A stretch of DNA of 64,000 nucleotides from an uncultured Candidatus Cloacimonadota bacterium (lineage in GTDB: Bacteria; Cloacimonadota; Cloacimonadia; Cloacimonadales; JAJBBL01), in the NCBI GenBank assembly GCA_964464175.1, contig CAYXFD010000013.1, positions 8,391 to 72,390 of the forward strand. The letters are read 5' to 3'. A program made the translations under genes and the position numbers. The notes under the pieces are model-generated. The model had not been told where the DNA came from. It made no database searches and saw nothing but the letters and a program-made list of their open reading frames with translations. This document shows positions 1 to 29,202 of this stretch, piece by piece; position 1 is the stretch's first letter, and the number at the start of each line of letters is the position of its first letter.

Positions 1-156
1 AGCAAAGCAAATATCAATTTTGAGATTATCAGGCATCTGACTCGAATATGGAGCCAAAGGGGGTTTATAAGTATCCGCCAATACGAAGCTTTATCTAATC
101 AAATCAATCTGATCGGGGCTCAGATAGGGGGTTGGAAAAAAAAAGATGGAAAATAA
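1..156 (+). CDS. avd: Accessory variability determinant (Avd-like four-helix-bundle protein), C-terminal fragment; 5' end outside window
   Basis: The frame-1 translation has no stop from base 1: SKANINFEIIRHLTRIWSQRGFISIRQYEALSNQINLIGAQIGGWKKKDGK*. The stop is at 154-156. The helical heptad-like sequence ends in the basic IGxxxGGWxK tail typical of Avd / 23S-rRNA-IVS family proteins. It ends 2 nt before the RT start codon. Confidence 0.65.
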   Translation, partial: SKANINFEIIRHLTRIWSQRGFISIRQYEALSNQINLIGAQIGGWKKKDGK

Positions 157-158
157 CG

Positions 159-1238
159 ATGCCTAAGAGGATTGGCTATCTTTACGAAAAGATTTATGAT
201 TGGAGCAATCTCTTAAACGCTTATCATAAAGCCGGAAGGTCAAAAAAAGAGAGACCGGATGTATTAGGCTTTGAGTTTGATTTAGAGAACCAATTGGTTC
301 TGATCCAAAGAGATTTGAAGGCTCAGGCTTACAGATTCGAGGGGTATCACAAATTCAATATTTATGAACCGAAAGAGCGAACTATCCATTGTGCTCCCTT
401 TAGAGATAGAGTAGTACATCACGCCATTAGCAATATCCTTAATCCGATCCTCGATCGCAGTATGATTCCGGACACTTATGCCTGCAGAAACAATAAAGGA
501 CTCCATCGTGCCTTAAAAAGGGCATTCTACTTCTACAGAAACTCTCGCTACTGCTACAAATTTGACGTCAGGAAGTTTTTCTACACAATTGATCATGAAA
601 TCTTGATGAGGAAAGTTTCCGGAAAAATCAAAGATCCGAAATTGTTGAATCTGCTGAGAGAGCTCCTTAATACATACGATAGCGGTATCGACTACTATTT
701 TCGTTTTGAACAAGATGATCTGATTGATATGATGAGGAACAGGGGTCTTCCCATAGGTAATCTAACAAGCCAAATCTTCGGAAACTTTTTCCTTTCTGAT
801 TTAGATCACTTTATCAAAGAGGATTTGAGACAGAGGTCTTATATACGTTATATGGATGATGCTTTAGTTTTTGCAGAAAACCTGGAAGAGCTTAAAACTG
901 CTAAATCTAAGATCACAAACAAATTAGCTGAAGACCGTCTGTTCATTCATCCCGATAAAAACATAATTAGCAATGTAAAAAGGGGGATCAATTTCTTAGG
1001 GTTCAGATTTTTTCAAGATCAGATCAGACTTCAGAATAAGAATCTCGTTAGATTCAAGAAAAAGCTAAAAAAAAGAGCACAACTGAACCTCTCTTATGCT
1101 GAGCATTTACTTAGTTTAAACGGACATTTGGGGTTTATTTCTGCCGGTAACACATTTAGGATTACGGAGATAGTATTGTCGGAAGTTGAGTTTAACCACA
1201 ACCAAAAAAAATACAGTTTTACTTTACAAAGGGTATGA
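159..1238 (+). CDS. DGR-type reverse transcriptase
   Basis: RT motifs are present: RTIHCAPFRDRVVHHAI, YKFDVRKFFYTIDHEIL, LPIGNLTSQIFGNFFLSDLD and SYIRYMDDALVF (YMDD catalytic box). LPIGNLTSQ is the I/LGxxxSQ motif-4 signature of DGR RTs. The N-terminus MPKRIGYLYEKIYDW is typical, so ATG 159 is preferred over the TTG at 132 given in the ORF track. Confidence 0.9.
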   Translation: MPKRIGYLYEKIYDWSNLLNAYHKAGRSKKERPDVLGFEFDLENQLVLIQRDLKAQAYRFEGYHKFNIYEPKERTIHCAPFRDRVVHHAISNILNPILDRSMIPDTYACRNNKGLHRALKRAFYFYRNSRYCYKFDVRKFFYTIDHEILMRKVSGKIKDPKLLNLLRELLNTYDSGIDYYFRFEQDDLIDMMRNRGLPIGNLTSQIFGNFFLSDLDHFIKEDLRQRSYIRYMDDALVFAENLEELKTAKSKITNKLAEDRLFIHPDKNIISNVKRGINFLGFRFFQDQIRLQNKNLVRFKKKLKKRAQLNLSYAEHLLSLNGHLGFISAGNTFRITEIVLSEVEFNHNQKKYSFTLQRV

Positions 1239-1380
1239 TACGAACATTAGAGCCGTTTTGCGTGGCGGGTCGTGGAACAACAACGACAACAACTGTCGTG
1301 TTGCCAACCGCAATAGGAACAATCGGTCAAACACCAACAACAACAACGGGTTTCGTGTTGCCAAGACTGTTTTTTGCCGG
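1225..1380 (+). repeat. DGR template repeat (TR), approximate boundaries; non-coding RNA template
   Basis: It starts at the RT stop codon. Read in the 1186 frame it gives YDTNIRAVLRGGSWNNNDNNCRVANRNRNNRSNTNNNNGFRVAKT, the C-terminal loop of an FGE-sulfatase/C-type-lectin fold. There are 12 AAC and 2 AAT codons within the 24 codons at 1276-1347, the adenine-rich pattern used by DGR mutagenic retrohoming. Exact ends cannot be set without the VR. Confidence 0.75.
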
Positions 1381-1661
1381 AATCGCTGTTCTAATAAAAC
1401 AGGAGAGAGCAAGAGAAAAGAGTCCAGTATCTTATCCTGTGCCCACAGAGCCGAAGTATATGATGAAGGTTAGTAGCAGAGTCGAAAGCCGGAAATTTTA
1501 TGATGTATTCGATTTTTAAGAATGCAGGCAACTTAGCTTGTTTTTGGAGTTAATAGGTTAACCGGATAGGATTTGCTGAAATTCGGGTGTATTTAAATAA
1601 GGAATGAATTCTTTATTGACGTAAGACGATAGTTATTAGTTCGAGGAATCGGGAGTTATTT

Positions 1662-2603
1662 ATGAAACTGCTATGTGATAATTGTGGTAAAGAGATTTTT
1701 GGTTCGGTAAATTTTTGCCCTTTTTGCGGTGAAGAAGCTCCACGGAAGACTGTTGTTTTTGGTGATTCTGCGAAGAAGATCGAAAATCCCAAATACTGTC
1801 CCGATTGCCGCCAGGCTAATCTTAGAAATGCTATGTTTTGTTCTATTTGTGGAGAAATGATCTATAAGAAACCGGAAAAAGAAGTGATCTTCTGTGGAGA
1901 ATGCGGAGAGAAGAATAAAAGTAAAGCTGTGATCTGCTGCTCTTGCGGCATTTCTTTAGCCGATTGGTTTACAATGAAAGGAAAGGTGGCTGAGGAGTTA
2001 AGTTATAAGGGGAATCTGAAACTGACTGAGAAAATGAACGGTATTACTTACATTTTTCTCTCAAAACCACTCTTTACTATTGGCAGAAGAGAAGAGAATG
2101 ATCTGGTAATCAAATGCCGATGGGTTTCAGGTAAACACTGCTATTTCGACTTACAAAAACAATTATTTATAGATTCCAGCCGGAACGGTACTTTTATCAA
2201 CCGTAACCCTACTCATATCAAGAGTGAAAAGATGCCATTCATTTCAGAGTTTAATGTTGCAGGTTCATTTACCTTTTCTTTTCTAAAGAAAGATAATCTC
2301 TATTGTTTGCACCTGGGTGCCATTTTAGACGAGGAAGAGTGCCGAAGAAATGGTGATGGAGAGAGTTTCGACAGATTAAGAAAAAACTACTATCTGTTCA
2401 CCACGGGAGACTTCAAGGTTGATATCCAAAAGCTCGATGGGGCGATAACATCAAAGAAGAAAAGACCAGGTGTTTCTCTTTATACTATACATCAGGAGAA
2501 TGGTTACTACTACTATACTGACATAGACCGTGGTTTGGAACGAATACTGATCATGAAGGACAATAATATACTACCCGATCATTGGATTATTGACTTCGTA
2601 TGA
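1662..2603 (+). CDS. Triple zinc-ribbon / FHA domain protein
   Basis: Three CxxC...CxxC ribbons are present (CDNCGKEIFGSVNFCPFCG, CPDCRQANLRNAMFCSICG, CGECGEKNKSKAVICCSCG). They are followed by an FHA core, FTIGRREENDLVIKCRWVSGKHCYFDLQKQLFIDSSRNGTFINRNP. The ~110-aa C-terminal region is unassigned. Confidence 0.8.
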   Translation: MKLLCDNCGKEIFGSVNFCPFCGEEAPRKTVVFGDSAKKIENPKYCPDCRQANLRNAMFCSICGEMIYKKPEKEVIFCGECGEKNKSKAVICCSCGISLADWFTMKGKVAEELSYKGNLKLTEKMNGITYIFLSKPLFTIGRREENDLVIKCRWVSGKHCYFDLQKQLFIDSSRNGTFINRNPTHIKSEKMPFISEFNVAGSFTFSFLKKDNLYCLHLGAILDEEECRRNGDGESFDRLRKNYYLFTTGDFKVDIQKLDGAITSKKKRPGVSLYTIHQENGYYYYTDIDRGLERILIMKDNNILPDHWIIDFV

Positions 2604-2807
2604 TAGGGCTACATAAACCGGAAGATTGAGTTATGAGAAAGTATCAATAATTTCGATGGAAGATTAAGAATTCTAAAACTTGGGCACATATTAGGCACAC
2701 AATATTTTGTAATTTAGTCATTAGGTCGGACACAAATACTTGCTAACATATTGATAAAATTATATATAGGCATACATATATAGCAGTCCCCAAAGAGTTG
2801 CTTCTTG

Positions 2808-2856
2808 TGATTCGTAATCAGTAGGTCGGGGGTTCGAATCCCCCTTTTAGCTCCAG
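2808..2856 (+). pseudogene. tRNA-Thr(CGU)-like 3' fragment (anticodon loop to CCA) with no 5' half; putative att-site scar
   Basis: The sequence is tga-TTCGTAA-tca-gt-aggtc-GGGGG-TTCGAAT-CCCCC-ttttagc-t-cca. It has a 7-nt anticodon loop with U33 and A37 and anticodon CGT, an AGGTC variable loop, a perfect T-arm with a TTCGAAT loop, a 7-nt acceptor 3' strand, a discriminator and an encoded CCA. Pairing breaks down upstream of 2808, and no D-arm or 5' acceptor strand (gctaaaa) exists within 120 nt. Confidence 0.55.
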
Positions 2857-3609
2857 TTTTAAATCTCTTCTATTCAGTCACTTATATCACTTCTTAGTCT
2901 AATCATTGCAGTATTTAGGGAATCAATATACAACATGTCAGTAACTATTTCTGAAGATAAGGTACCAGATATCCTGTTTGAACTTGTTGGTCAAATATTC
3001 TGCGGATGCATTCTGGATTAGCTGACAGAATCAAGAATAGGGTAAAAAAACAAGCTTGTGAGGTCTTTTCTGTAGCTGATGCATAGATTGCAGCCTTAAT
3101 CAAGAAAGGTTGGATTTGTCCCGCCACAGGAGCCTATTCAATGCTTCGCTTGCCTATTCCTCTATCATACCTTCTTTAGTTTTTCTTCTTAGTATGGCTC
3201 AAAATATGCCGGGTAGTCTTCTCTCTGAGTGAGTGGATAGGATACCCTTATCGCATTTATCTGAGAGAAGACTCAGCAAAATGTCTGCGAGAAAATGAGT
3301 GTATTCAGTGCTGTAGCTGAACCCATGGAGAAAACAGATAGTATAAGATACGTGATGCCTTATCTAAAACGATAGAGAATCCGGACCAGCGCTCCCTATA
3401 CTCATTATCTATTACTGCATCACAGCTAATAACTGCAACATAGTCAGCCGTTGTTATCTCAATTTTTTCGCGGGGTTTGGGAAGAACATATTCTCCTGTT
3501 CACGTTAACTCTACCCTAAGTAATGGCTCGTTGACGAAGTCATTGATAATAATCTGGTTATCAATGATTTTTCCAATAGTCTGAAGAGTGAAGCGGAGGC
3601 AGATAATCA

Positions 3610-4380
3610 TTATCTCTTTGGGAACCAAGGGAAGAAAACGCTCGTATGTTTAGCATATTCCTGATATTCGGGATTATCGGCGTTCTTCTTCTCTAAAAGA
3701 GGTATCCCTGATACGAACAATAGCAGAGTAGTAATAATCAGAGGGCTGAAGATAGTCAACAGGCCATAGGGCACATTAAGCATTATCAGAAAGATACCCC
3801 ACCACATAGCTGCTTCACCAAAATAGTTAGGGTGGCGCGTGTACCGCCAAAGACCGGACTTCATGACTTTGCCCCTATTTTCATCTTTGCTCTTAAAACA
3901 GGTTTTTTGCAGATCTCCTATAGATTCGAAATAGAAGCCAATGAGCCATATAAACAAACCTAATAGATCGAGCAGAGAAAACGGTTTCCCTTTGTCATAA
4001 TGTAAAACAAAGACGGGATAGGCAATAGTGAGCATAAGAAAGCCTTGAAGCATAAAGACCTGCAGGTAACTACGGATAATCCAATTCTTACCCCAATCCT
4101 GTCGCCATTTAGCATAGCGAAAATCTTCTTTTTTGCCTTTATTTCTGCTATAGATGTAGTTAGCCAATCGTATTCCCCATATAAAAATCAGAGAAGTAAC
4201 TAAGGTTTGTCGAGGATTATAGTCAGAGAACAGCAGGTAGTTCGATAAGAAAATGAGAATAAACCCTAAACCCCAGCCAATATCTACAATTGAGTTATCC
4301 TTAATCAGCAAAGCGAGCACAAAAAGGATACTCATAAACATAAATACCTGCAATACCGTAAACAAAATAATATTCAGCAT
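3610..4380 (-). CDS. DUF1295 / steroid-5-alpha-reductase-like polytopic membrane protein
   Basis: It is multi-pass hydrophobic and carries the family motif [22 protein letters not shown] near the C-terminus. Confidence 0.8.
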
Positions 4381-9384: not shown

Positions 9385-10021
9385 AAGTAAAGATACTGAA
9401 GGGGAGTCTCAAAATCATAATCCATAAGACCAGAAAAGGGATCGAGATGATGCATCGTTCGAAGGGACTGGTAACTGTGTAGGAACAGAATGGTTTTGCG
9501 GAGAACATTTTACAGGCTATCACCCAAAGAAGCAATTACCTCAGTGACCAAACATTTTAAGACCCAAGAATAGTCTCCCAAAGTTTGTAAAGAAAAGTTA
9601 TACTGCCGGCATTTGACCCACTTTTTTCCCTGATGACCTGATCAGGGGCGTAATCATGAGAGGTAAATCTCAACAACTCGATGGCTATATTTCTGAGTTC
9701 AGAAGATTTAAATTGACAAAAAAACGTTATAGATATACTTGATATACAGAAGATTTCAAGCTGAGAAGGATATAGTGTAACAGCTTGTGTTAGAAATTTG
9801 TAATTGATTTTTGAGTTAGCAACTCGACTTAGTGCTATTACTGAGGAATTGAGGTGGCTATGAAAAGAGTTAACGTCGCAAATTGTCCAGTGTTAGCGGC
9901 AAATACTTCCTGGTGTATTGGAATGCATCTAATGCTTATTAGTACCCAACATCATAATTAGGCTTTTTTTTCTTCAGGATGTTTCAGAATTAATCTTAGT
10001 TTTTTCTTTTCGGAGGTAAAA

Positions 10022-12820
10022 ATGAAGCATGTTTTTTTATTATCGTTTATCTTATTATTGACAGTAGTCTTGTTTGCAGAATCGGTTGATCATGATACCG
10101 CTCTAACTGCAGCAAGTAACTGGTTGAATCATCAAAACAATTTAAGGGGCAATTACCCGGATCTTTCAGTTAAGGACTTTTACATCCATCGACTTGAAGG
10201 TCAAATAATCTTTTATGTCTTTGATTTCGAACCGCAAGGTTTCGTTATGGTAGCCGGAAGCGATGCCTCAAGTCCAATTCTCGGTTACAGTGTATCGGGT
10301 TCGAGTAGTTTAGGTGATTTCCCTCCTAACGCTGCCTCATTCTTCTCGATCTATGAGAGAGGCATGTTGGATATCAATAATAATGAATTATCAAATGAGT
10401 ATTCTATAGGTGACTGGGAAGCTATTTTGACCGGGAACATTCCTTCTCCCCATCGCTCACGGGCAGTATCACCGCTGTTGTCAACTCAGTGGAATCAGAA
10501 CTATTCATGGAATACATCATGTCCTGCTGATGTCAACGGTCCGGGTGGTTACGTTTATGCCGGATGTCCTGCAGTAGCAGCGGCACAGGTAATGAACTAC
10601 TGGGAGCATCCGGACCAGGGCACCGGTTCACACTCTTATACTCATACCCAATACGGTTTACTCTCGGCAAATTTCGGAACTACTACCTATGATTGGTCAA
10701 GCATGTCTGATACCACTCCCACGAATTCAATCAGACAGCTGCTATTTCATCTTGGTGTTGCAACTGAGATGGACTACGGTCCTTATGGTTCAGGAGCTTA
10801 CTCTTCTGATGCCCGGGATGCTCTGGTAGATTTTTTTGATTATGATGCTTCAGCTTCATTAGAGTGGAAGTATAATTATTCTCACAACGAGTGGATATCG
10901 CTTCTCAAAGAACAGTTAGATAACAGTTACCCTTTATTCTATCATGGTTATGACTCAACTCATAGTTCCGGACATGCCTTTAATTGTGACGGCTATGATG
11001 CCAGTGATAATTTCCATTTCAATTGGGGTTGGAGTGGCAGTTATGACGGATATTTCAACCTCAATAGTCTTAATCCGGGAAGTCATGATTTCAGTTATTT
11101 ACAGGCAGCGATTGTTGATGTATATCCAGCATCGCAGCTTCCCGCTCCCCAGAACTTAACCGGCTATGCAGGCGGGGCAAAGGTATTTCTTTCCTGGTCA
11201 GCTCCCGCTTCCCGTTCCCTCCAGGGATATAACGTTTACCGTTTTGGGACCAAGATCAACCAGAGCCTGATAAACGGGTTGGAATACGAAGATACAGATG
11301 TTATGAGTCCCGGTATTTATCAGTATTATGTAACAGCAGTTTATGATTCGGGAGAATCCGGAGCTTCGAATACTGTTACCATGGAAACCTATAATCCTTT
11401 ATCCCTACCATTTTCGGAGAACTTCGATACAGTTAGTGAAATCCCTGTTTATTGGCATTTAGATGATCACATTGGCAACGGTCAGGTGTGGCAGGTAGGA
11501 ATTGTTTTCGGAGGGTTAGTGACAAGCGGTAATTATGCTTTTCTAAACAGCCATAATTACGGGTCAGGTAATACTCAGAATTGTGACCTGATAACTCCCG
11601 TTTTAGATCTGACGAATTACCGTAATATTCAGCTCTCTTTCAGCCACTATTTCAAACAGAAAGCGCTCTCTTCCACAGCAACTCTGTCTTATAGTTTGGA
11701 TAATGGTGCTTCCTGGACAGCGATAGACTCCTGGACAGACGATACTGCTAATCCGGATTTCTTTAGTTCTTTTATTTCTGCTGTAGATAAGGAATCTGAA
11801 GTCAGATTCAAATGGAATTATACCGGTACATGGGGTAATTACTGGTGTATAGATAATATTGATATAGTCGGGGAGGAATTAGTCATTCCGCCTGAAGGAA
11901 CAATGGTTGAAGGCTTTTTCTTTTCACATGACAATCCAGAATCGATCTCTTACGATCCCGAACCCGCAGATCCGCCGGATCCTCCGGAAGATTACAATAA
12001 TCTACTGTTAATTGGAGTTTCCGGTTCAGGACTAGTTCAGTTCACGATATCGGCAGATCCGCAAACATCTGGGTTTTACTATGTATCAGGAGGATGGTCG
12101 GCACCACATGCCTGTATTGATAACGAGATTGTCTTTAATATCGATTTTGGAAGAGGCGACGCTTATATCTTTCTTGGTGATGAAGATGATCCTCCGCTTC
12201 CGGTAGAGCTTTCTTCCTTCACTGCTAATATTACTGCCGATATGTTTGTGAACCTCGAATGGCGGGCAGAGTCAGAAACTAATATGCTTGGCTATAACGT
12301 GTTTCGCGCTTCGGAAGACAGTGTTACAGAAGCTGCGAAAGTAAATCCGGTTACGATTGAAGCCCATAATGAAAGTGTAGCAACTGACTATTATTATGTT
12401 GATCAGAATGTCTTTAGTGGTCAAGAATACTACTATTGGCTGGAGTTGATCGATCTCGATCTGACAACTAATTTCCATGGTCCTGTTTATGTCTTTGTGA
12501 ACGAAGATGAGGAATCAGGAACAACGCCGGTTCTTCTTGAAACCAGACTGATCGGAGCTTATCCCAATCCTTTCAATCCTGAAACCGCTGTAAGGTTCTC
12601 TGTCGCAGAAACTACAAAGGTATCTATCACAGTTTACAATCTGCTCGGACAAAAGATGCAGTCTCTTTTGATTAACGAACTCTACGATAAAGGAAGACAT
12701 TCAGTTGTCTGGAATGGAAGGGATGCCGATAATCAACCTGCTGCTTCCGGGATTTATTTCTACAGAATGAAAACCGATGACGGTTTTGAGGATTTCAAAA
12801 AAATGCTCTTGCTGAAGTAG
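10022..12820 (+). CDS. Secreted C10-family (streptopain-like) cysteine peptidase with T9SS-type C-terminal sorting domain
   Basis: It has a signal peptide and an N-terminal inhibitor-like prodomain. The catalytic Cys context is YVYAGCPAVAAAQVMNYWEHP and the His context is SSGHAFNCDGYD. The C-terminus is IGAYPNPFNPETAVRFSV...GIYFYRMKTDDGFEDFKKMLLLK. Confidence 0.8.
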   Translation: MKHVFLLSFILLLTVVLFAESVDHDTALTAASNWLNHQNNLRGNYPDLSVKDFYIHRLEGQIIFYVFDFEPQGFVMVAGSDASSPILGYSVSGSSSLGDFPPNAASFFSIYERGMLDINNNELSNEYSIGDWEAILTGNIPSPHRSRAVSPLLSTQWNQNYSWNTSCPADVNGPGGYVYAGCPAVAAAQVMNYWEHPDQGTGSHSYTHTQYGLLSANFGTTTYDWSSMSDTTPTNSIRQLLFHLGVATEMDYGPYGSGAYSSDARDALVDFFDYDASASLEWKYNYSHNEWISLLKEQLDNSYPLFYHGYDSTHSSGHAFNCDGYDASDNFHFNWGWSGSYDGYFNLNSLNPGSHDFSYLQAAIVDVYPASQLPAPQNLTGYAGGAKVFLSWSAPASRSLQGYNVYRFGTKINQSLINGLEYEDTDVMSPGIYQYYVTAVYDSGESGASNTVTMETYNPLSLPFSENFDTVSEIPVYWHLDDHIGNGQVWQVGIVFGGLVTSGNYAFLNSHNYGSGNTQNCDLITPVLDLTNYRNIQLSFSHYFKQKALSSTATLSYSLDNGASWTAIDSWTDDTANPDFFSSFISAVDKESEVRFKWNYTGTWGNYWCIDNIDIVGEELVIPPEGTMVEGFFFSHDNPESISYDPEPADPPDPPEDYNNLLLIGVSGSGLVQFTISADPQTSGFYYVSGGWSAPHACIDNEIVFNIDFGRGDAYIFLGDEDDPPLPVELSSFTANITADMFVNLEWRAESETNMLGYNVFRASEDSVTEAAKVNPVTIEAHNESVATDYYYVDQNVFSGQEYYYWLELIDLDLTTNFHGPVYVFVNEDEESGTTPVLLETRLIGAYPNPFNPETAVRFSVAETTKVSITVYNLLGQKMQSLLINELYDKGRHSVVWNGRDADNQPAASGIYFYRMKTDDGFEDFKKMLLLK

Positions 12821-15004: not shown

Positions 15005-15736
15005 ATGAAATGGTTTGTATTTCTTTCAATGCTTTTTTTCTTGACCGGGTCGCTGGCTGCCCTTACAGGTTTTGGAGATTCAACAATAAATGTTGAGTTG
15101 GATGAAACAATACCGGATGATCCTTTACCGGTTGAACTATCGTCATTCACAGCAGCTCTTACTTCTACACGGTTTATTGAGTTACGTTGGGTCTCAGAGG
15201 CTGAGTATAGTATGTTGGGCTATAATGTCTATCGTGGTATAAATGGGGATTTATCGGAAGCACTGAAGATTTCATTAGAGATTATTCCGGCATATAACTA
15301 CTCTTTTTCTACTAACTACAGCTTTGTTGATGAAGACGTAGTTGCGGGGAATGTCTTTTTTTACTGGCTGCAAGCTGTTAATCTCGATTTGACGAACAAG
15401 TATTTCGGTCCTTTATCTGTAATCATTGATGATCAGGAAGAAGATACTCCTTTGATCTTTATCACCTCATTAGGAAAAAACTATCCGAACCCTTTCAATC
15501 CCAACACAATTATTGAATACAGTATTAGAGAAGAGACCGAAGCAGTTTTGAGAATCTATAATGTACGGGGTCAGATTGTAAAGACACTTTTCTCAGGGGT
15601 AAGAGAAGCGGGAAATTACCGGGAAAAATGGAACAGTATTGACAGTCAGGGTAGAGAGGTTGCATCCGGAGTTTATTTATATCGGCTTACGACCGATCAC
15701 TATGACAGAATCAATAAGATGCTACTTGTCAAGTGA
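15005..15736 (+). CDS. Small secreted protein: LPVELSSFT module plus T9SS-type C-terminal sorting domain
   Basis: It has a signal peptide and the module DDPLPVELSSFTAALTSTRFIELRW...GYNVYR...FFYWLQAVNLDLT. The C-terminus is NYPNPFNPNTIIEYSI...GVYLYRLTTDHYDRINKMLLVK. An RBS (ggagga) is present. Confidence 0.75.
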   Translation: MKWFVFLSMLFFLTGSLAALTGFGDSTINVELDETIPDDPLPVELSSFTAALTSTRFIELRWVSEAEYSMLGYNVYRGINGDLSEALKISLEIIPAYNYSFSTNYSFVDEDVVAGNVFFYWLQAVNLDLTNKYFGPLSVIIDDQEEDTPLIFITSLGKNYPNPFNPNTIIEYSIREETEAVLRIYNVRGQIVKTLFSGVREAGNYREKWNSIDSQGREVASGVYLYRLTTDHYDRINKMLLVK

Positions 15737-15754: not shown

Positions 15755-18700
15755 ATGAAGCAGTTTCTAATATCGATCTTAGTCGTATTGTATATACCGA
15801 TTCTATTTGCTCAGACAATAGGGGATCCCCCTGTAGTTTCGAACGTAGTCATGTGGCAGAACCAGAACAACGGGTTGATTTATGTTACATATGATTTAAG
15901 TATTCAAGCGAACCCAGTTCCTTGTCATGTGACCCTGGTCATCTCAGGAGATGAAGGAGTGAGTTTCAAAATTCATCCCTTGCCTGAATTTATAGAAGGC
16001 GATTTCGGAGATTATGTAACAGTAGGAACAGGCAAACAGATAATCTGGGACATCTACCGGCAGTCTCAAGCATTAGGTTCTCAGGGTGTATTCGGTAATA
16101 CTTACCGTGCCCGGGTTATAGCCCGCCGCAATGATTTTAATCCCGTTAATCCAGCACCGGCAGGGTTTGTTTCTATCGAGGGTGGTACGTTTCACAATGG
16201 CACGTCCAATATAACGATCAGCAGTTTTTACATTGACCGTTATGAGGTTACCCAAGTCGAATATGAAGCAGTTATGGGTACGAATCCTTCGGATTTCAGC
16301 GGAAGCAGTAATCTCCAGCGTCCGGTGGAGCAGGTATCCTGGTTCAATGCTATCGAATACTGCAACCGAAGAAGTATGCAGGAAGGACTAATACCTTGCT
16401 ATAGTTACAGTACTTTTGGCACTAACCCTGATAACTGGCCAGTAGGATGGGATTTTTTGCCAAACCACACCAATGTAACCTGTAATTGGAACGTTAATGG
16501 GTACCGTTTGCCTACAGAAATGGAATGGATGTTTGTTGCTAAGGGAGGTAATCAGAGCCAGAACTACACCTACAGTGGCAGTAACACAATTGATTTAGTT
16601 GCGTGGTATTATGGTAACTCAGATATCGGTGATGGGCAAGGAAGGCGCTCTCACGAGATAGGCACCAAAACCCCAAACGAATTGGGTATCTATGACATGA
16701 GTGGAAATGTTTGGGAGTGGGTGTGGGATATGTTCAGTTATGATTATCCCAGTAACGATCAGACAAATCCGACGGGTCCAAGTGTTGAAGGAACACGTGT
16801 TGTGCGTGGTGGTTGTTGGAATCAAACAGACAATAATTGTACCAATTCAACTCGAGGTAATAGCAGCGCAACAATTGATTTCAACACTCACGGCTTTCGT
16901 ATTGTCAGAAGGTTTTCTATGGAAACGGTAGCGACCCCTGTATTTTTTCCTTCTCCTGGAACCTATGCCAGTTCTCAGATGGTCAGTATCAGTTGTTCCA
17001 CACCGGGAGCTACGATCTACTACACGACCAATGGTAGCGAGCCAAACACTAATTCCACTATCTATACTGGTGCGATAACGGTGAATTCGAATACCACTGT
17101 CAAAGCCAAAGCTTACAAAGCGTCATTTATTCCTTCGGATGTTGTCGAAGGTATCTACATCATCAATACTGCCCCTGCGAACATGATATTGATATCAGGC
17201 GGAACTTTTACCATGGGCAGAACTACCGGTACAGGAGGCGGCAATGAACTTCCGACGCACAGCATAACTCTGAACTCGTTTTACCTGGGAAAATATGAGA
17301 TTACTCAAGGAGAGTATGAAGCAATCTTGGGCTCTAATCCAGCCTCCGGTGCTGGTGAAGGAGAGGACTTTCCCGTTTATGAGGTGAGTTGGTATTCTGC
17401 TATCAAGTATTGCAATCTTCGCAGTATGGCTGAAGGTCTTGTTCCGGCATATACCATAGATGGCTCTACAGATCCTGGAGATTGGGGAGCAGTTCCTGAG
17501 ACCGGTAATGCCACCTGGGATGCAGTAACTTGTAACTGGAATGCCAATGGTTATCGCTTACCTACAGAAGCGGAATGGGAATATGCCGCCCGGGGAGCAG
17601 TCAACAATCCTGACTATCTCTACAGCGGATCGGATGACATTGACGATGTGGCATGGTTTGAAGGAAACAACAATCCGTGGGGAACAAAACAAATCGGTCT
17701 CAAAGATCCTAATGTATTAGGATTGCATGATCTGAGCGGAAACGTGATTGAATGGTGCTGGGATTGGTATTCCTACTCTTATTATAGTGAAAGCTCAGCA
17801 AATAATCCTACCGGACCTTCCACAGGCACTTACAGGATTGCCAGAGGTGGCGATTGGTCTCTGCCTGAAAACAGCAGCCGTGTTTCAGCTCGAGGTTTTG
17901 CCAATCCTGAGCATAGAAGTCTAAATTTTGGTTTCCGGGTTTGCTTTAATGCGCCAACAGTTGCCACACCTACTATCTTTCCAGTCGGTGGTACTTACTA
18001 CACCAGCCAAAGTGTAACCATCGACTGTTCCACAAATGGTGCTGCTATCTACTATTCCATCAACGGCAGCGATCCCGATGAAAACTCCACCCTTTATAAC
18101 GGGCCAATTTCTCTAAGTTCAGATACAATGCTTAAAGCGAAGGCCTATATGACAAACTGGGAACCGAGTGGCATAGCCAGTGCAGAATATACATTTGATA
18201 CCATACAGGATAGTCTCATATTAGTTCAAGGAGGCACTTTCCACAATGGAGTTTCCAATGTTACTCTCTCATCTTTTTTCATTGATAAATATGAAGTTAC
18301 TCAGTCAGAGTATTTGGCTGTGATGGGAACAAATCCCGGCAGCAATAACTCAGAGCATGGCGATCCGCTTAATCATCCGATCAACAATGTCACTTGGTTC
18401 AATGCTATCGAGTACTGTAACCGCCTGAGTATAATAGAAGGGTTGACTCCGGCATACAGCTACAGTAATTACGGTACTAATCCTGATGATTGGCCTTCCG
18501 GTTGGAATACAAGTAGTGGCAATCATACGAACGTATCCTGTGACTGGTCAGCGGATGGTTATTGTTTACCTACTGAGATGCAGTGGGAGTATGCTGCCCG
18601 TGGTGGGATACCTGCCCAGAATGCAGGGACATTTAACGATACTTATGCCGGAACTGATGTTCAGGGTACTGGAACGGGGCAGTTAGGGGATTATGCCTGG

Positions 18701-27420: not shown

Positions 27421-27556
27421 AAGACTAGCCCTCCTGCAACTTTACCTGTGATGGGAATTAGATGAAAATAGTTGCTTTCTGGCAACCAATAAGGGGCAAT
27501 TATCATTTCGTCATTCGGTATCCAATAAAGACCTAATAAGTGAGAAAAAAAAGCAA

Positions 27557-28552
27557 ATGCATAGTAACAATAGAGTGTTAGCTCTCTTTTCCGGCGGGCT
27601 TGACAGTGTGTTGAGCATTTTGTGGATGAAAAAGCTCGGTTACGAAGTTTTACCGGTCTTTTTTGAGAGCTTTTTTTTTGGTGCGGAGAACGCTGAAGAA
27701 GCAGCTAAAGCTGCCGGTTTGGAGCTAAAGGTTATCGATATCGGAGAAGAATTACTGGAAGTTCTAAAAAAACCGCGTTACGGCTTCGGAAAGAATATGA
27801 ATCCCTGTATTGACTGTCACTCTCTGATGTTTAAAACCGCGGGGGAACTTCTGGAGAGTGAGGGGAGAGATTTCCTGATTTCGGGGGAGGTCTTAGGACA
27901 ACGTCCGATGTCACAGAGACTTGATGCTATGAATGCCGTAGCGAAAATGAGCGGATTTCGCGATCTTATTGTCAGACCCCTGTCACAGAGATTACTCGCT
28001 GATACATTGCCCATAAAAAAGGGTTGGGTAAAAAAAGAAGAGATGCTCGATATTCAGGGGAGAAGCCGGCAGAGGCAAATAGAACTGGCAAAGGATTTTG
28101 GACTGAAGGAGTATAGCACACCTGGCGGAGGTTGTCTGCTAACGGATAAGGGGTATTCCGAGCGGCTAAAAGATCTTTTCTCATATAACATGCTGGAAGG
28201 GAGATTTATCAAATTTCTCCGCTACGGCAGGCATTTTCGGCTGAGTCCGGAAGTCAAATTGATAATCGGTAGAAATGAGCAGGAACTGGAAAAAATATTC
28301 CGTCTTGTTGAGGATGAGACGGTTATAAAGGCAGCAGACTGTTTGGGACCGGTAGGTGTTATTAACAAAAGCAGAGAGATGAATCCCGGCGAGTTGCATA
28401 GGGCTGCTGAATTGGTTTTAAGTTACACTAATAAAGCTAAGGAAGAGGATACCATTGCTTACGGCTTGAACAACGACCTTCAGGGTAAGGTCAAGGTTCA
28501 TAAACTATCACGTAGCAAGATCGATGACCTGCTGATAAAATCTAATACTTAA
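27557..28552 (+). CDS. PP-loop ATP pyrophosphatase family protein (ThiI/MnmA-like, probable tRNA thiolation enzyme)
   Basis: It has the PP-loop VLALFSGGLDSVLSI, plus NPCIDCHSLMF and GEVLGQRPMSQ, which resemble ThiI-type sulfurtransferase motifs. The exact subfamily is not resolved. Confidence 0.6.
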   Translation: MHSNNRVLALFSGGLDSVLSILWMKKLGYEVLPVFFESFFFGAENAEEAAKAAGLELKVIDIGEELLEVLKKPRYGFGKNMNPCIDCHSLMFKTAGELLESEGRDFLISGEVLGQRPMSQRLDAMNAVAKMSGFRDLIVRPLSQRLLADTLPIKKGWVKKEEMLDIQGRSRQRQIELAKDFGLKEYSTPGGGCLLTDKGYSERLKDLFSYNMLEGRFIKFLRYGRHFRLSPEVKLIIGRNEQELEKIFRLVEDETVIKAADCLGPVGVINKSREMNPGELHRAAELVLSYTNKAKEEDTIAYGLNNDLQGKVKVHKLSRSKIDDLLIKSNT

Positions 28553-28569
28553 AAAGAGTGAGGTAGATA

Positions 28570-29202
28570 ATGAAATTTGAACAATTTGTCCTGCTCAAAG
28601 ATTTCGAAACAAATACCTATCTGTTATGGGATGAAAAGAGCCTCGAAGCCATGCTGTTAGATCCGGGAGCTCCGGGAGAGCAAGTAGTGAAGTCCATAAC
28701 CGATAAGAAATTGACTTTGAAGTATATTGTCAATACTCATGGACATGGTGATCATATCGGAGGAAACCGCTATTTCAAAGGGAAATATCCTGAAGCAAAA
28801 TTATGTATTCATCAAGATGATGAACCGATGCTTTACAAAGCAGATCTGAATCTGAGCCTGTATTATGAGAAAACTACAGTATCTCCTCCGGCTGAGGTTA
28901 TACTGGAAGATGGGATGTCACTTTTTCTGGGGAAAGAGGAGGTGAAGGTCATTCATACTCCTGGGCATACAAAAGGAGGAGTCTGCCTGTTGACGGGTAC
29001 TTTGCTCTTCAGTGGAGATACCCTCTTTGCCGAAAACGTAGGGAGAACTGATCTGCCGGGAGGCAGTTTCTCTGATCTGGCAGCTTCGATAAAGAATAAG
29101 CTTTTCAGCTTAGAGGGGATGGTTCTGGTGCTTCCGGGTCATGGTGAGCAAACTACGATCGGAGAAGAAAAGGAATATAACCCTTATGTGGGTGAAGCCT
29201 AA
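28570..29202 (+). CDS. MBL-fold metallo-hydrolase (glyoxalase II-like)
   Basis: It has the HxHxDH motif VNTHGHGDHIGGN, later HTPGHTKG, and is ~210 aa. Confidence 0.85.
   Translation: MKFEQFVLLKDFETNTYLLWDEKSLEAMLLDPGAPGEQVVKSITDKKLTLKYIVNTHGHGDHIGGNRYFKGKYPEAKLCIHQDDEPMLYKADLNLSLYYEKTTVSPPAEVILEDGMSLFLGKEEVKVIHTPGHTKGGVCLLTGTLLFSGDTLFAENVGRTDLPGGSFSDLAASIKNKLFSLEGMVLVLPGHGEQTTIGEEKEYNPYVGEA

Follow-up and report, generated by a model that had tools for sequence, protein, structure and literature searches.

Elements that carry a tyrosine integrase and target tRNA genes, including the P4-type islands and the NBU-type elements of Bacteroides, insert in the 3' end of the tRNA gene. The attP site of such an element repeats the 3' portion of its target tRNA, and the recombinase acts inside the sequence common to both partners. 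One product, attL, runs from the 5' part of the tRNA through the core into the P' arm; the functional gene is restored, with the integrase gene lying just inside the element. In the other, attR, the P arm and the core are joined to the native downstream flank. In attP sites of the phage lambda type, the core is flanked by arm-type integrase binding sites. DGRs are found on genomic islands in Legionella pneumophila, and integrase-dependent excision of Legionella islands is the subject of reference 32 of PMC5758913. Among cellular DGRs, kinases form target class b12 (PMC5758913), in which C-type-lectin/FGE-sulfatase domains are fused to signaling domains, and the targets of cellular DGRs have been viewed as putative antigen sensors (PMC10907252). 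Previous descriptions cover tRNA-gene integrase islands, chromosomal-island DGRs, kinase-linked CLec/FGE-sulfatase targets, and transposase genes in DGR loci (PMC5758913, PMC10907252).

The locus described here lies at the left end of a 64-kb window (the whole stretch of DNA that was analyzed), which starts within an island, at the end of avd. Same-species contigs from other assemblies reach 8.5 kb farther left than the window; the coordinates of this extension are given on contig L084. The window features that define the DGR cassette and its right-hand boundary are as follows.

1..156, plus strand: 3' end of avd (last 51 codons), the C-terminus of a 110-aa protein encoded at L084 8286-8618
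159..1238, plus strand: DGR reverse transcriptase (RT), 359 aa, Pfam RVT_1 (E=2.4e-24), with IGNLTSQ and YMDD in the translation
1251..1376, plus strand: DGR template repeat (TR), a direct repeat with the 3' end of a kinase gene
1662..2603, plus strand: zinc-ribbon and FHA protein, 313 aa, Pfam Zn_Ribbon_1, DZR, and FHA
2604..2807, no strand: AT-rich arm, 204 nt, GC 0.324, unrelated to the tRNA 5' half; the probable element-side arm (P arm) of attR
2680..2701, plus strand: tandem 11-nt motif TTGGGCACATA-TTAGGCACACA, candidate arm-type integrase binding site
2808..2855, plus strand: orphan 3' segment of tRNA-Thr(CGU), tRNA positions 29-76; very probably the attR core direct repeat
2856..3609, no strand: non-coding flank, 754 nt, presumed native downstream flank of the tRNA (B' arm)
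3610..4380, minus strand: DUF1295 gene (Pfam), first of a conserved chromosomal block of DUF1295, FakA/DegV, and lipocalin

We consider it very likely that positions 2808-2855 are an attR core and mark the right junction of a tyrosine-recombinase island inserted in the 3' part of a tRNA-Thr(CGU) gene of a Cloacimonadota-like host. The segment consists of 3 nt of the 5' strand of the anticodon stem (TGA), a 7-base loop with the CGT anticodon (TTCGTAA), the 3' strand of that stem (TCAGT), a 5-base variable loop (AGGTC), a complete T-arm (GGGGG-TTCGAAT-CCCCC), the 3' strand of the acceptor (TTTTAGC), the discriminator (T), and CCA. The bases to its left (…GCTTCTTG) do not extend the anticodon stem, and the D-arm and the 5' acceptor strand are absent at 2808-2855. 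The preliminary description of this DNA, which reported the 3' portion of a tRNA-Thr(CGU) with 3 bp of anticodon stem and neither D-arm nor 5' acceptor strand, is therefore accurate, except that it placed the end at 2856; the last tRNA-derived base is 2855, and the flank begins with the G at 2856. The spacer upstream is AT rich, as had been stated, with a GC content of 0.324 over 2604-2807 compared with 0.415 in the remaining window.

The segment is not a functional tRNA gene, in that neither ARAGORN nor the Rfam tRNA models recognize a complete cloverleaf here. ARAGORN reports no tRNA gene in the whole 64-kb window, an Rfam scan of the window gives no match at the gathering score, and a permissive Rfam scan (E<=10, positions 2650-2950) returns only sub-threshold partial matches to the T-arm, the best of the tRNA clan scoring 13.7 bits. 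An exact-match scan of JGI metagenome contigs with the 3' 45 nt (2811-2855) found eight places, of which seven are intact tRNA-Thr(CGT) genes and one is a further orphan. When the intact genes, which read GCTAAAATAGCTCAGTCGGTAGAGCAACTGATTCGTAATCAG…, are aligned with the window, identity grows to 48 nt, from position 29 through CCA; it sets in at the TGA of the anticodon stem and is lost abruptly at tRNA position 28. Because its 3' 45 nt are present exactly in seven intact tRNA-Thr(CGT) genes, the segment is genuine tRNA sequence and not a chance resemblance; a search of the window for a 32-nt sub-pattern of it, with as many as 3 mismatches allowed, gives a single match, where 0 are expected. 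None of these seven contigs has window DNA in common past the tRNA segment. Involvement of the tRNA in priming DGR reverse transcription, or an origin of the segment as a CCA-bearing retro-copy, was also considered and rejected, as CCA is encoded in all of the intact genomic copies.

A 3' segment displaced in this orientation had been taken to predict an element lying to the left, with an intact tRNA-Thr(CGU) of identical 3' segment and an adjacent integrase at the far end. This arrangement is indeed present, on a separate contig (L071, extended as L099) from the same JGI sample series as the window's species, and the contig was recognized as the partner solely through its integrase and its DGR variable region (VR3). 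The order on L099 is a PNPOx gene, an intact tRNA-Thr(CGT) at 9698-9773 (ARAGORN), and a tyrosine integrase gene at 10001-11101. L099 9726-9773 and window 2808-2855 are identical at 48 of 48 positions, and the integrase ORF (366 aa) starts 227 nt downstream of the tRNA. Its product matches Pfam Phage_integrase (2e-23, 83.5 bits, with a cut-off of 27.1) and Phage_int_SAM_5 (7.6e-17, 61.9 bits), its catalytic residues (R, H-x-x-R, H, and Y) are matched in an alignment with a XerC-like structure, and its closest PDB match has E=1e-6; the N-terminus has a weak match to Arm-DNA-bind_5 that is below the Pfam cut-off (E=0.0018). Three features of tRNA-gene integrase islands are thus seen across the two contigs: an intact tRNA, the tRNA 3' repeat, and a tyrosine recombinase gene adjacent to the intact tRNA. 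None of the findings that had been named in advance as contrary to this interpretation (a complete tRNA at this position, lack of an intact tRNA and integrase partner, or conservation of the fragment where the DGR is missing) was made.

Additional observations bear on whether L099 and the window derive from the same organism. The exact integrase protein is found in ERZ27252301, JGI 3300033178, and SRR10872664, all of which are samples that also have the window's DGR and DUF1295 contigs. Among the Logan k=31 unitigs of SRR10872664, those running from the DGR to the core, from the core to DUF1295, and from the core to the integrase all end within the 48-nt repeat, which is the expected product of a repeat common to two junctions. 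The tetranucleotide profile of the L099 left flank correlates with that of the window at r=0.963, close to the values of 0.966-0.976 obtained for 10-kb pieces of the window itself, and the figure for most related species is 0.87-0.92; yet L107, which may be from another species, gives 0.960, and we regard the compositional match as soft evidence with poor discrimination.

The two ends also have a short motif in common. A tandem TTGGGCACATA-TTGGGCACACA is located at L099 9902-9923, between the intact tRNA and the integrase gene, and the window tandem is 106 nt left of the orphan, such that the motif is about 105-150 nt from the core in both arms. The consensus TTRGGCACAYA has just two matches in the 64-kb window, adjacent to each other, with 0.06 expected. 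Across 108 fetched loci, it is confined to copies of the window and L099 sites and to the equivalent place on a contig of another species (L106), which has one exact copy and one near-copy. Such a location, orientation, and restricted occurrence are consistent with the two arms of a single attP, and the tandem repeats are therefore probably arm-type binding sites for the integrase, although as candidates recognized from sequence.

The DGR itself extends leftward out of the window, and the partner contig carries a further target, with the following gene order and targets.

L084, left to right: 42-codon ORF tail, FHA protein (623 aa), PP2C phosphatase, two kinase-FGE-sulfatase targets, avd
Left of the window: kinase-FGE-sulfatase target, 605 aa, carrying VR1
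Left of the window: kinase-PASTA-FGE-sulfatase target, 721 aa, carrying VR2
L099 13737-15728, outside the window: third DGR target, 663 aa, with VR3 at 15602-15719, the coding 3' end

This is a DGR in that RT and Avd are both present and that TR/VR pairs (VR2 and VR3) differ at TR adenines alone. The 110-aa Avd passes the NCBIfam DivGenRetAVD equivalog cut-off (96.7 bits versus 80); avd had been named in the preliminary description as part of the terminal cargo, and only its last 156 nt are in the window, with the remainder to the left. Over 118 nt, TR and VR2 differ at 21 positions and TR and VR3 at 17, every one of them a TR adenine, and all non-A positions of the TR/VR3 pair are identical; VR1 additionally has indels totaling 3 nt. 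The 663-aa protein is assigned as the third target of the window's DGR because all 17 differences between VR3 and TR are at TR adenines. A single TR therefore diversifies two cytoplasmic-type kinases and one protein that is probably extracytoplasmic. The zinc-ribbon-FHA gene adjoins the DGR in all 16 contigs (16/16) and is the last gene of the island.

We note that VR1, VR2, and TR are identical base for base in six independent assemblies (L084, L001, L003, L076, L077, and L078), and no between-sample diversification is visible at the consensus level in these assemblies, even though RT, Avd, and TR are intact. A 94-aa ORF at window 1235-1519, which is called in all assemblies, overlaps TR and has no family match; this ORF, 3' of RT, is probably spurious and not a gene. 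A palindromic intergenic module of ~90 nt (CCTTTGACC…GGTCTCCAGACCTTCCAGGTCTGG…) is present at L084 3686-3775 and 5777-5867 and at L099 15916-16006, placing a copy before each of the kinase genes and one after VR3. The copies are 96-98% identical and overlap called ORFs of 77 and 79 aa, and the module could be a regulatory or retrohoming-related structure.

At least 17.7 kb of the island is seen, plus one unassembled gap, and we estimate its length at roughly 18-20 kb. The left half codes for the integrase, a 598-aa protein without assigned function 3' of it, and the 663-aa PEGA/CarboxypepD_reg/FGE-sulfatase protein with VR3, followed by an IS1182-like transposase gene at the gap. The right half codes for FHA and PP2C proteins, the two Ser/Thr kinase-FGE-sulfatase targets (VR1 and VR2), Avd, RT, and the zinc-ribbon-FHA protein, with TR between the last two. 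The GC content of the island (0.40-0.41) differs little from that of the flanks (0.415-0.428). The 17.7 kb contains only the integrase, signaling proteins, DGR parts, and unknowns, and no mobilization, excision, or transfer genes were recognized in the island. Matches of the kinases to PADLOC models (PD-T4-6, mad6, and Stk2) were considered as evidence of a defense role and rejected, as these are generic kinase-domain matches.

No contig joining the right end of L099 (16192) to the left end of L084 was retrieved, and the two ends do not overlap. L099 breaks off 77 nt into an ORF (16116-16192), and the matches of its 26-aa N-terminus are weak (E 0.06-8) and consistently to the N-termini of annotated IS1182-family transposases; an IS present in multiple copies could plausibly have interrupted the assembly here. 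There are no terminal inverted repeats and no target duplication linking the L099 end with the L084 start. On the other side of the gap, three JGI assemblies end at the identical left base (L084 position 1), look-ups with RT and with the zinc-ribbon-FHA protein gave no contig past this position, and a leftward walk with the 623-aa FHA protein gave no extension, this protein being located on one contig only. Neither an integrase nor a tRNA is present in the 11.3 kb of left-extended contigs. The 42-aa tail at the start of L084 (1-129) has no family match, and the 623-aa FHA protein (L084 192-2063) has no homologue at E<=1e-10 in a collection of 5.8 billion proteins. We infer that the L099 and L084 halves are contiguous and that the island was acquired by integration and is not ancestral.

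Relatives of the integrase are found with other cargo. In another species (L106), an integrase that is 86% identical is coded directly 3' of an intact tRNA-Thr(CGT), the integrase-proximal arm is conserved, and the cargo includes a Type I restriction enzyme (Type I R-M). A second relative (L107/L108), with 73% identity, heads an island with Type I R-M, GmrSD, and DUF1016 genes; it has no tRNA upstream, and this relative therefore uses another attachment site. The tRNA is thus reused by the 86% identical sister integrase, and the cargo of both sister islands is different from that of the window's island. A second type of element also appears to use tRNA-Thr(CGU) in the same community, as another orphan, of 52 nt and starting from tRNA position 25, is located at L074 331-382 (Ga0334884_1057579). 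It lacks TTRGGCACAYA, and an FGE-sulfatase-domain gene encoded on the other strand has its 3' end 65 nt away. In a distant relative (L070 4677-6324), an intact tRNA-Thr(CGU) is directly followed by homologues, at about 50% aa identity, of the adjacent gene pair at window 27452-29199. In the window, this pair and the orphan are 25 kb apart, and the arrangement in the relative may be left over from an earlier order at the tRNA locus or may be a coincidence.

To the right of the orphan, the flank starts with GTTTT after CCA, which resembles what follows the intact genes of relatives (CCA-GTTTA and CCA-GGTTTT), whereas the integrase-side junction reads CCA-TCTTTT. Beyond the flank are genes for DUF1295, FakA/DegV, lipocalin, permease, GNAT, and T9SS-sorted C10 peptidase proteins (Pfam). 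The DUF1295/FakA/lipocalin block is syntenic with Cloacimonadota MAG contigs (L005 and L008) at 49-75% aa identity and with the closest relative (L081) at 87% aa and 83% nt identity, and this synteny implies that the host is Cloacimonadota-like and that the right side is core chromosome. When GTDB genomes were scanned with the DUF1295 protein, this species was not among them; the most similar protein is 71% identical, with no tRNA nearby. The closest relative (L081/L082) has neither the DGR nor the tRNA fragment. A 397-nt spacer separates its DUF1295 gene from der (EngA), which comes next, with no tRNA-Thr, and the predicted attB arrangement is thus absent. Its homology with the window stops at the DUF1295 stop codon and not at the orphan, and is uninformative about the junction; no similarity is seen between the window flank (2856..3609) and the spacer that takes its place in this relative. 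In more distant relatives there is likewise no tRNA beside DUF1295, and among the contigs of this species that were retrieved, none is island free and neither polymorphism nor a sign of current mobility is seen.

The integration mechanism we propose is a textbook one, and the finding is solid but ordinary. The attachment site of the island would have carried a copy of tRNA positions 29-76; recombination within the 48-nt identity would have rebuilt an intact tRNA at the left junction (attL), beside the integrase gene. The right junction (attR) would have retained the displaced 3' copy, now seen as window 2808-2855. L099 is tied to the window's DGR by the VR3/TR relationship, the common intergenic module, and the arm motif, and by co-occurrence in the same samples. 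The most serious alternative is that the orphan is what remains of an earlier, or a different, element with an integrase of this family and that the DGR kinase cassette is not part of the integrase segment's mobile unit, the two being separate loci or having been joined by rearrangement or an IS. The gap between L099 and L084 is unbridged, with an IS1182-like transposase gene starting at the break, DGR targets may be far from their RT (PMC5758913), and on L074 there is a second orphan of this tRNA in other surroundings. We nonetheless think this explanation unlikely. Identity at 48 of 48 positions in an unselected fragment speaks against great age, and the arm motif beside the orphan matches that beside this particular integrase. 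Moreover, VR3 and the common module put part of the same DGR system directly behind the integrase, and both contig ends point one way, as would those of one interrupted segment.

The element had been described as a prophage or island, and of these it is the small integrase island that the evidence favors. That it is a prophage or prophage remnant with the DGR as terminal cargo is highly improbable: many DGRs are phage borne and phages classically integrate at tRNA genes (PMC5758913), but there are no capsid, tail, terminase, portal, or lysis genes in the 17.7 kb seen. The nearest relatives in IMG/VR are distant (37% identity for RT and 26% for the integrase), neither the tRNA fragment nor the arm motif is present in IMG/VR, and the sister islands carry R-M genes. 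Hardly any weight attaches to explanations unrelated to site-specific integration, in which the fragment would be a tRNA pseudogene in decay, a tRNA-like hairpin formed by chance, or a terminator that has been domesticated. The T-arm followed by TTTT does match the terminator consensus, just 3' of the last island gene, but the 48-nt identity ends exactly at CCA and breaks off sharply at position 28, and there is an intact copy beside an integrase with a common arm motif. A terminator role may be incidental and secondary, and would leave the origin of the fragment unexplained.

With this interpretation as an integrase island, the DGR locus has a definite right boundary and probably a definite left one as well. 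A cellular DGR with kinase, FHA, and PP2C signaling partners is then the cargo of a small integrase island and not of a phage, which offers a specific means by which cellular DGRs could be spread horizontally within an uncultured phylum, and testable att sites are supplied in the form of the 48-nt core and the 11-nt arm motif. The R-M cargo of the sister islands hints at a cargo slot for conflict-related functions. A more speculative extension, which we hold to be rather doubtful, is that the integrase/att module defines a Cloacimonadota family of small tRNA-Thr(CGU) islands that exchange their cargo, and that in this member the DGR kinase/FHA/PP2C module replaces the Type I R-M, GmrSD, and DUF1016 defense genes of the sister islands. 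If this were true, the hypervariable kinase module might itself be a horizontally mobile sensor or defense system acting against phages or other invaders.

Among known systems, the P4-type and NBU-type elements are the closest in architecture: the intact tRNA lies beside the integrase gene, the tRNA 3' repeat is at the other end, the element is small, and cargo differs between sister elements. The differences are the uncultured, Cloacimonadota-like host and an integrase that is distant from those that have been solved or named (PDB E=1e-6). As in the lambda attP, both element-side arms contain a short repeated motif, here separated from the core by about 105-150 nt; unlike lambda, the motif sequence is unrelated, binding is predicted, and the element is not a phage. 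The Legionella islands are similar in having a cellular DGR as cargo on an integrase-dependent chromosomal island and not on a phage, although they belong to another phylum, their target is a lipoprotein instead of kinase and PEGA/FGE-sulfatase proteins, and the island described here is much smaller. With the class b12 and antigen-sensor DGRs the locus has in common VRs at the C-terminus of FGE-sulfatase domains fused to Pkinase, several targets per TR, and a transposase gene inside the locus. In contrast to the antigen-sensor DGRs, the host is not known to be multicellular, the partners are FHA, PP2C, and zinc-ribbon-FHA proteins and not STAND NTPases, and the locus has boundaries that are defined by the integrase and the att sites. 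The new features are the Cloacimonadota-like host, the defined att core and arm motif, and the presence of a DGR signaling cassette on an integrase family that elsewhere carries R-M.
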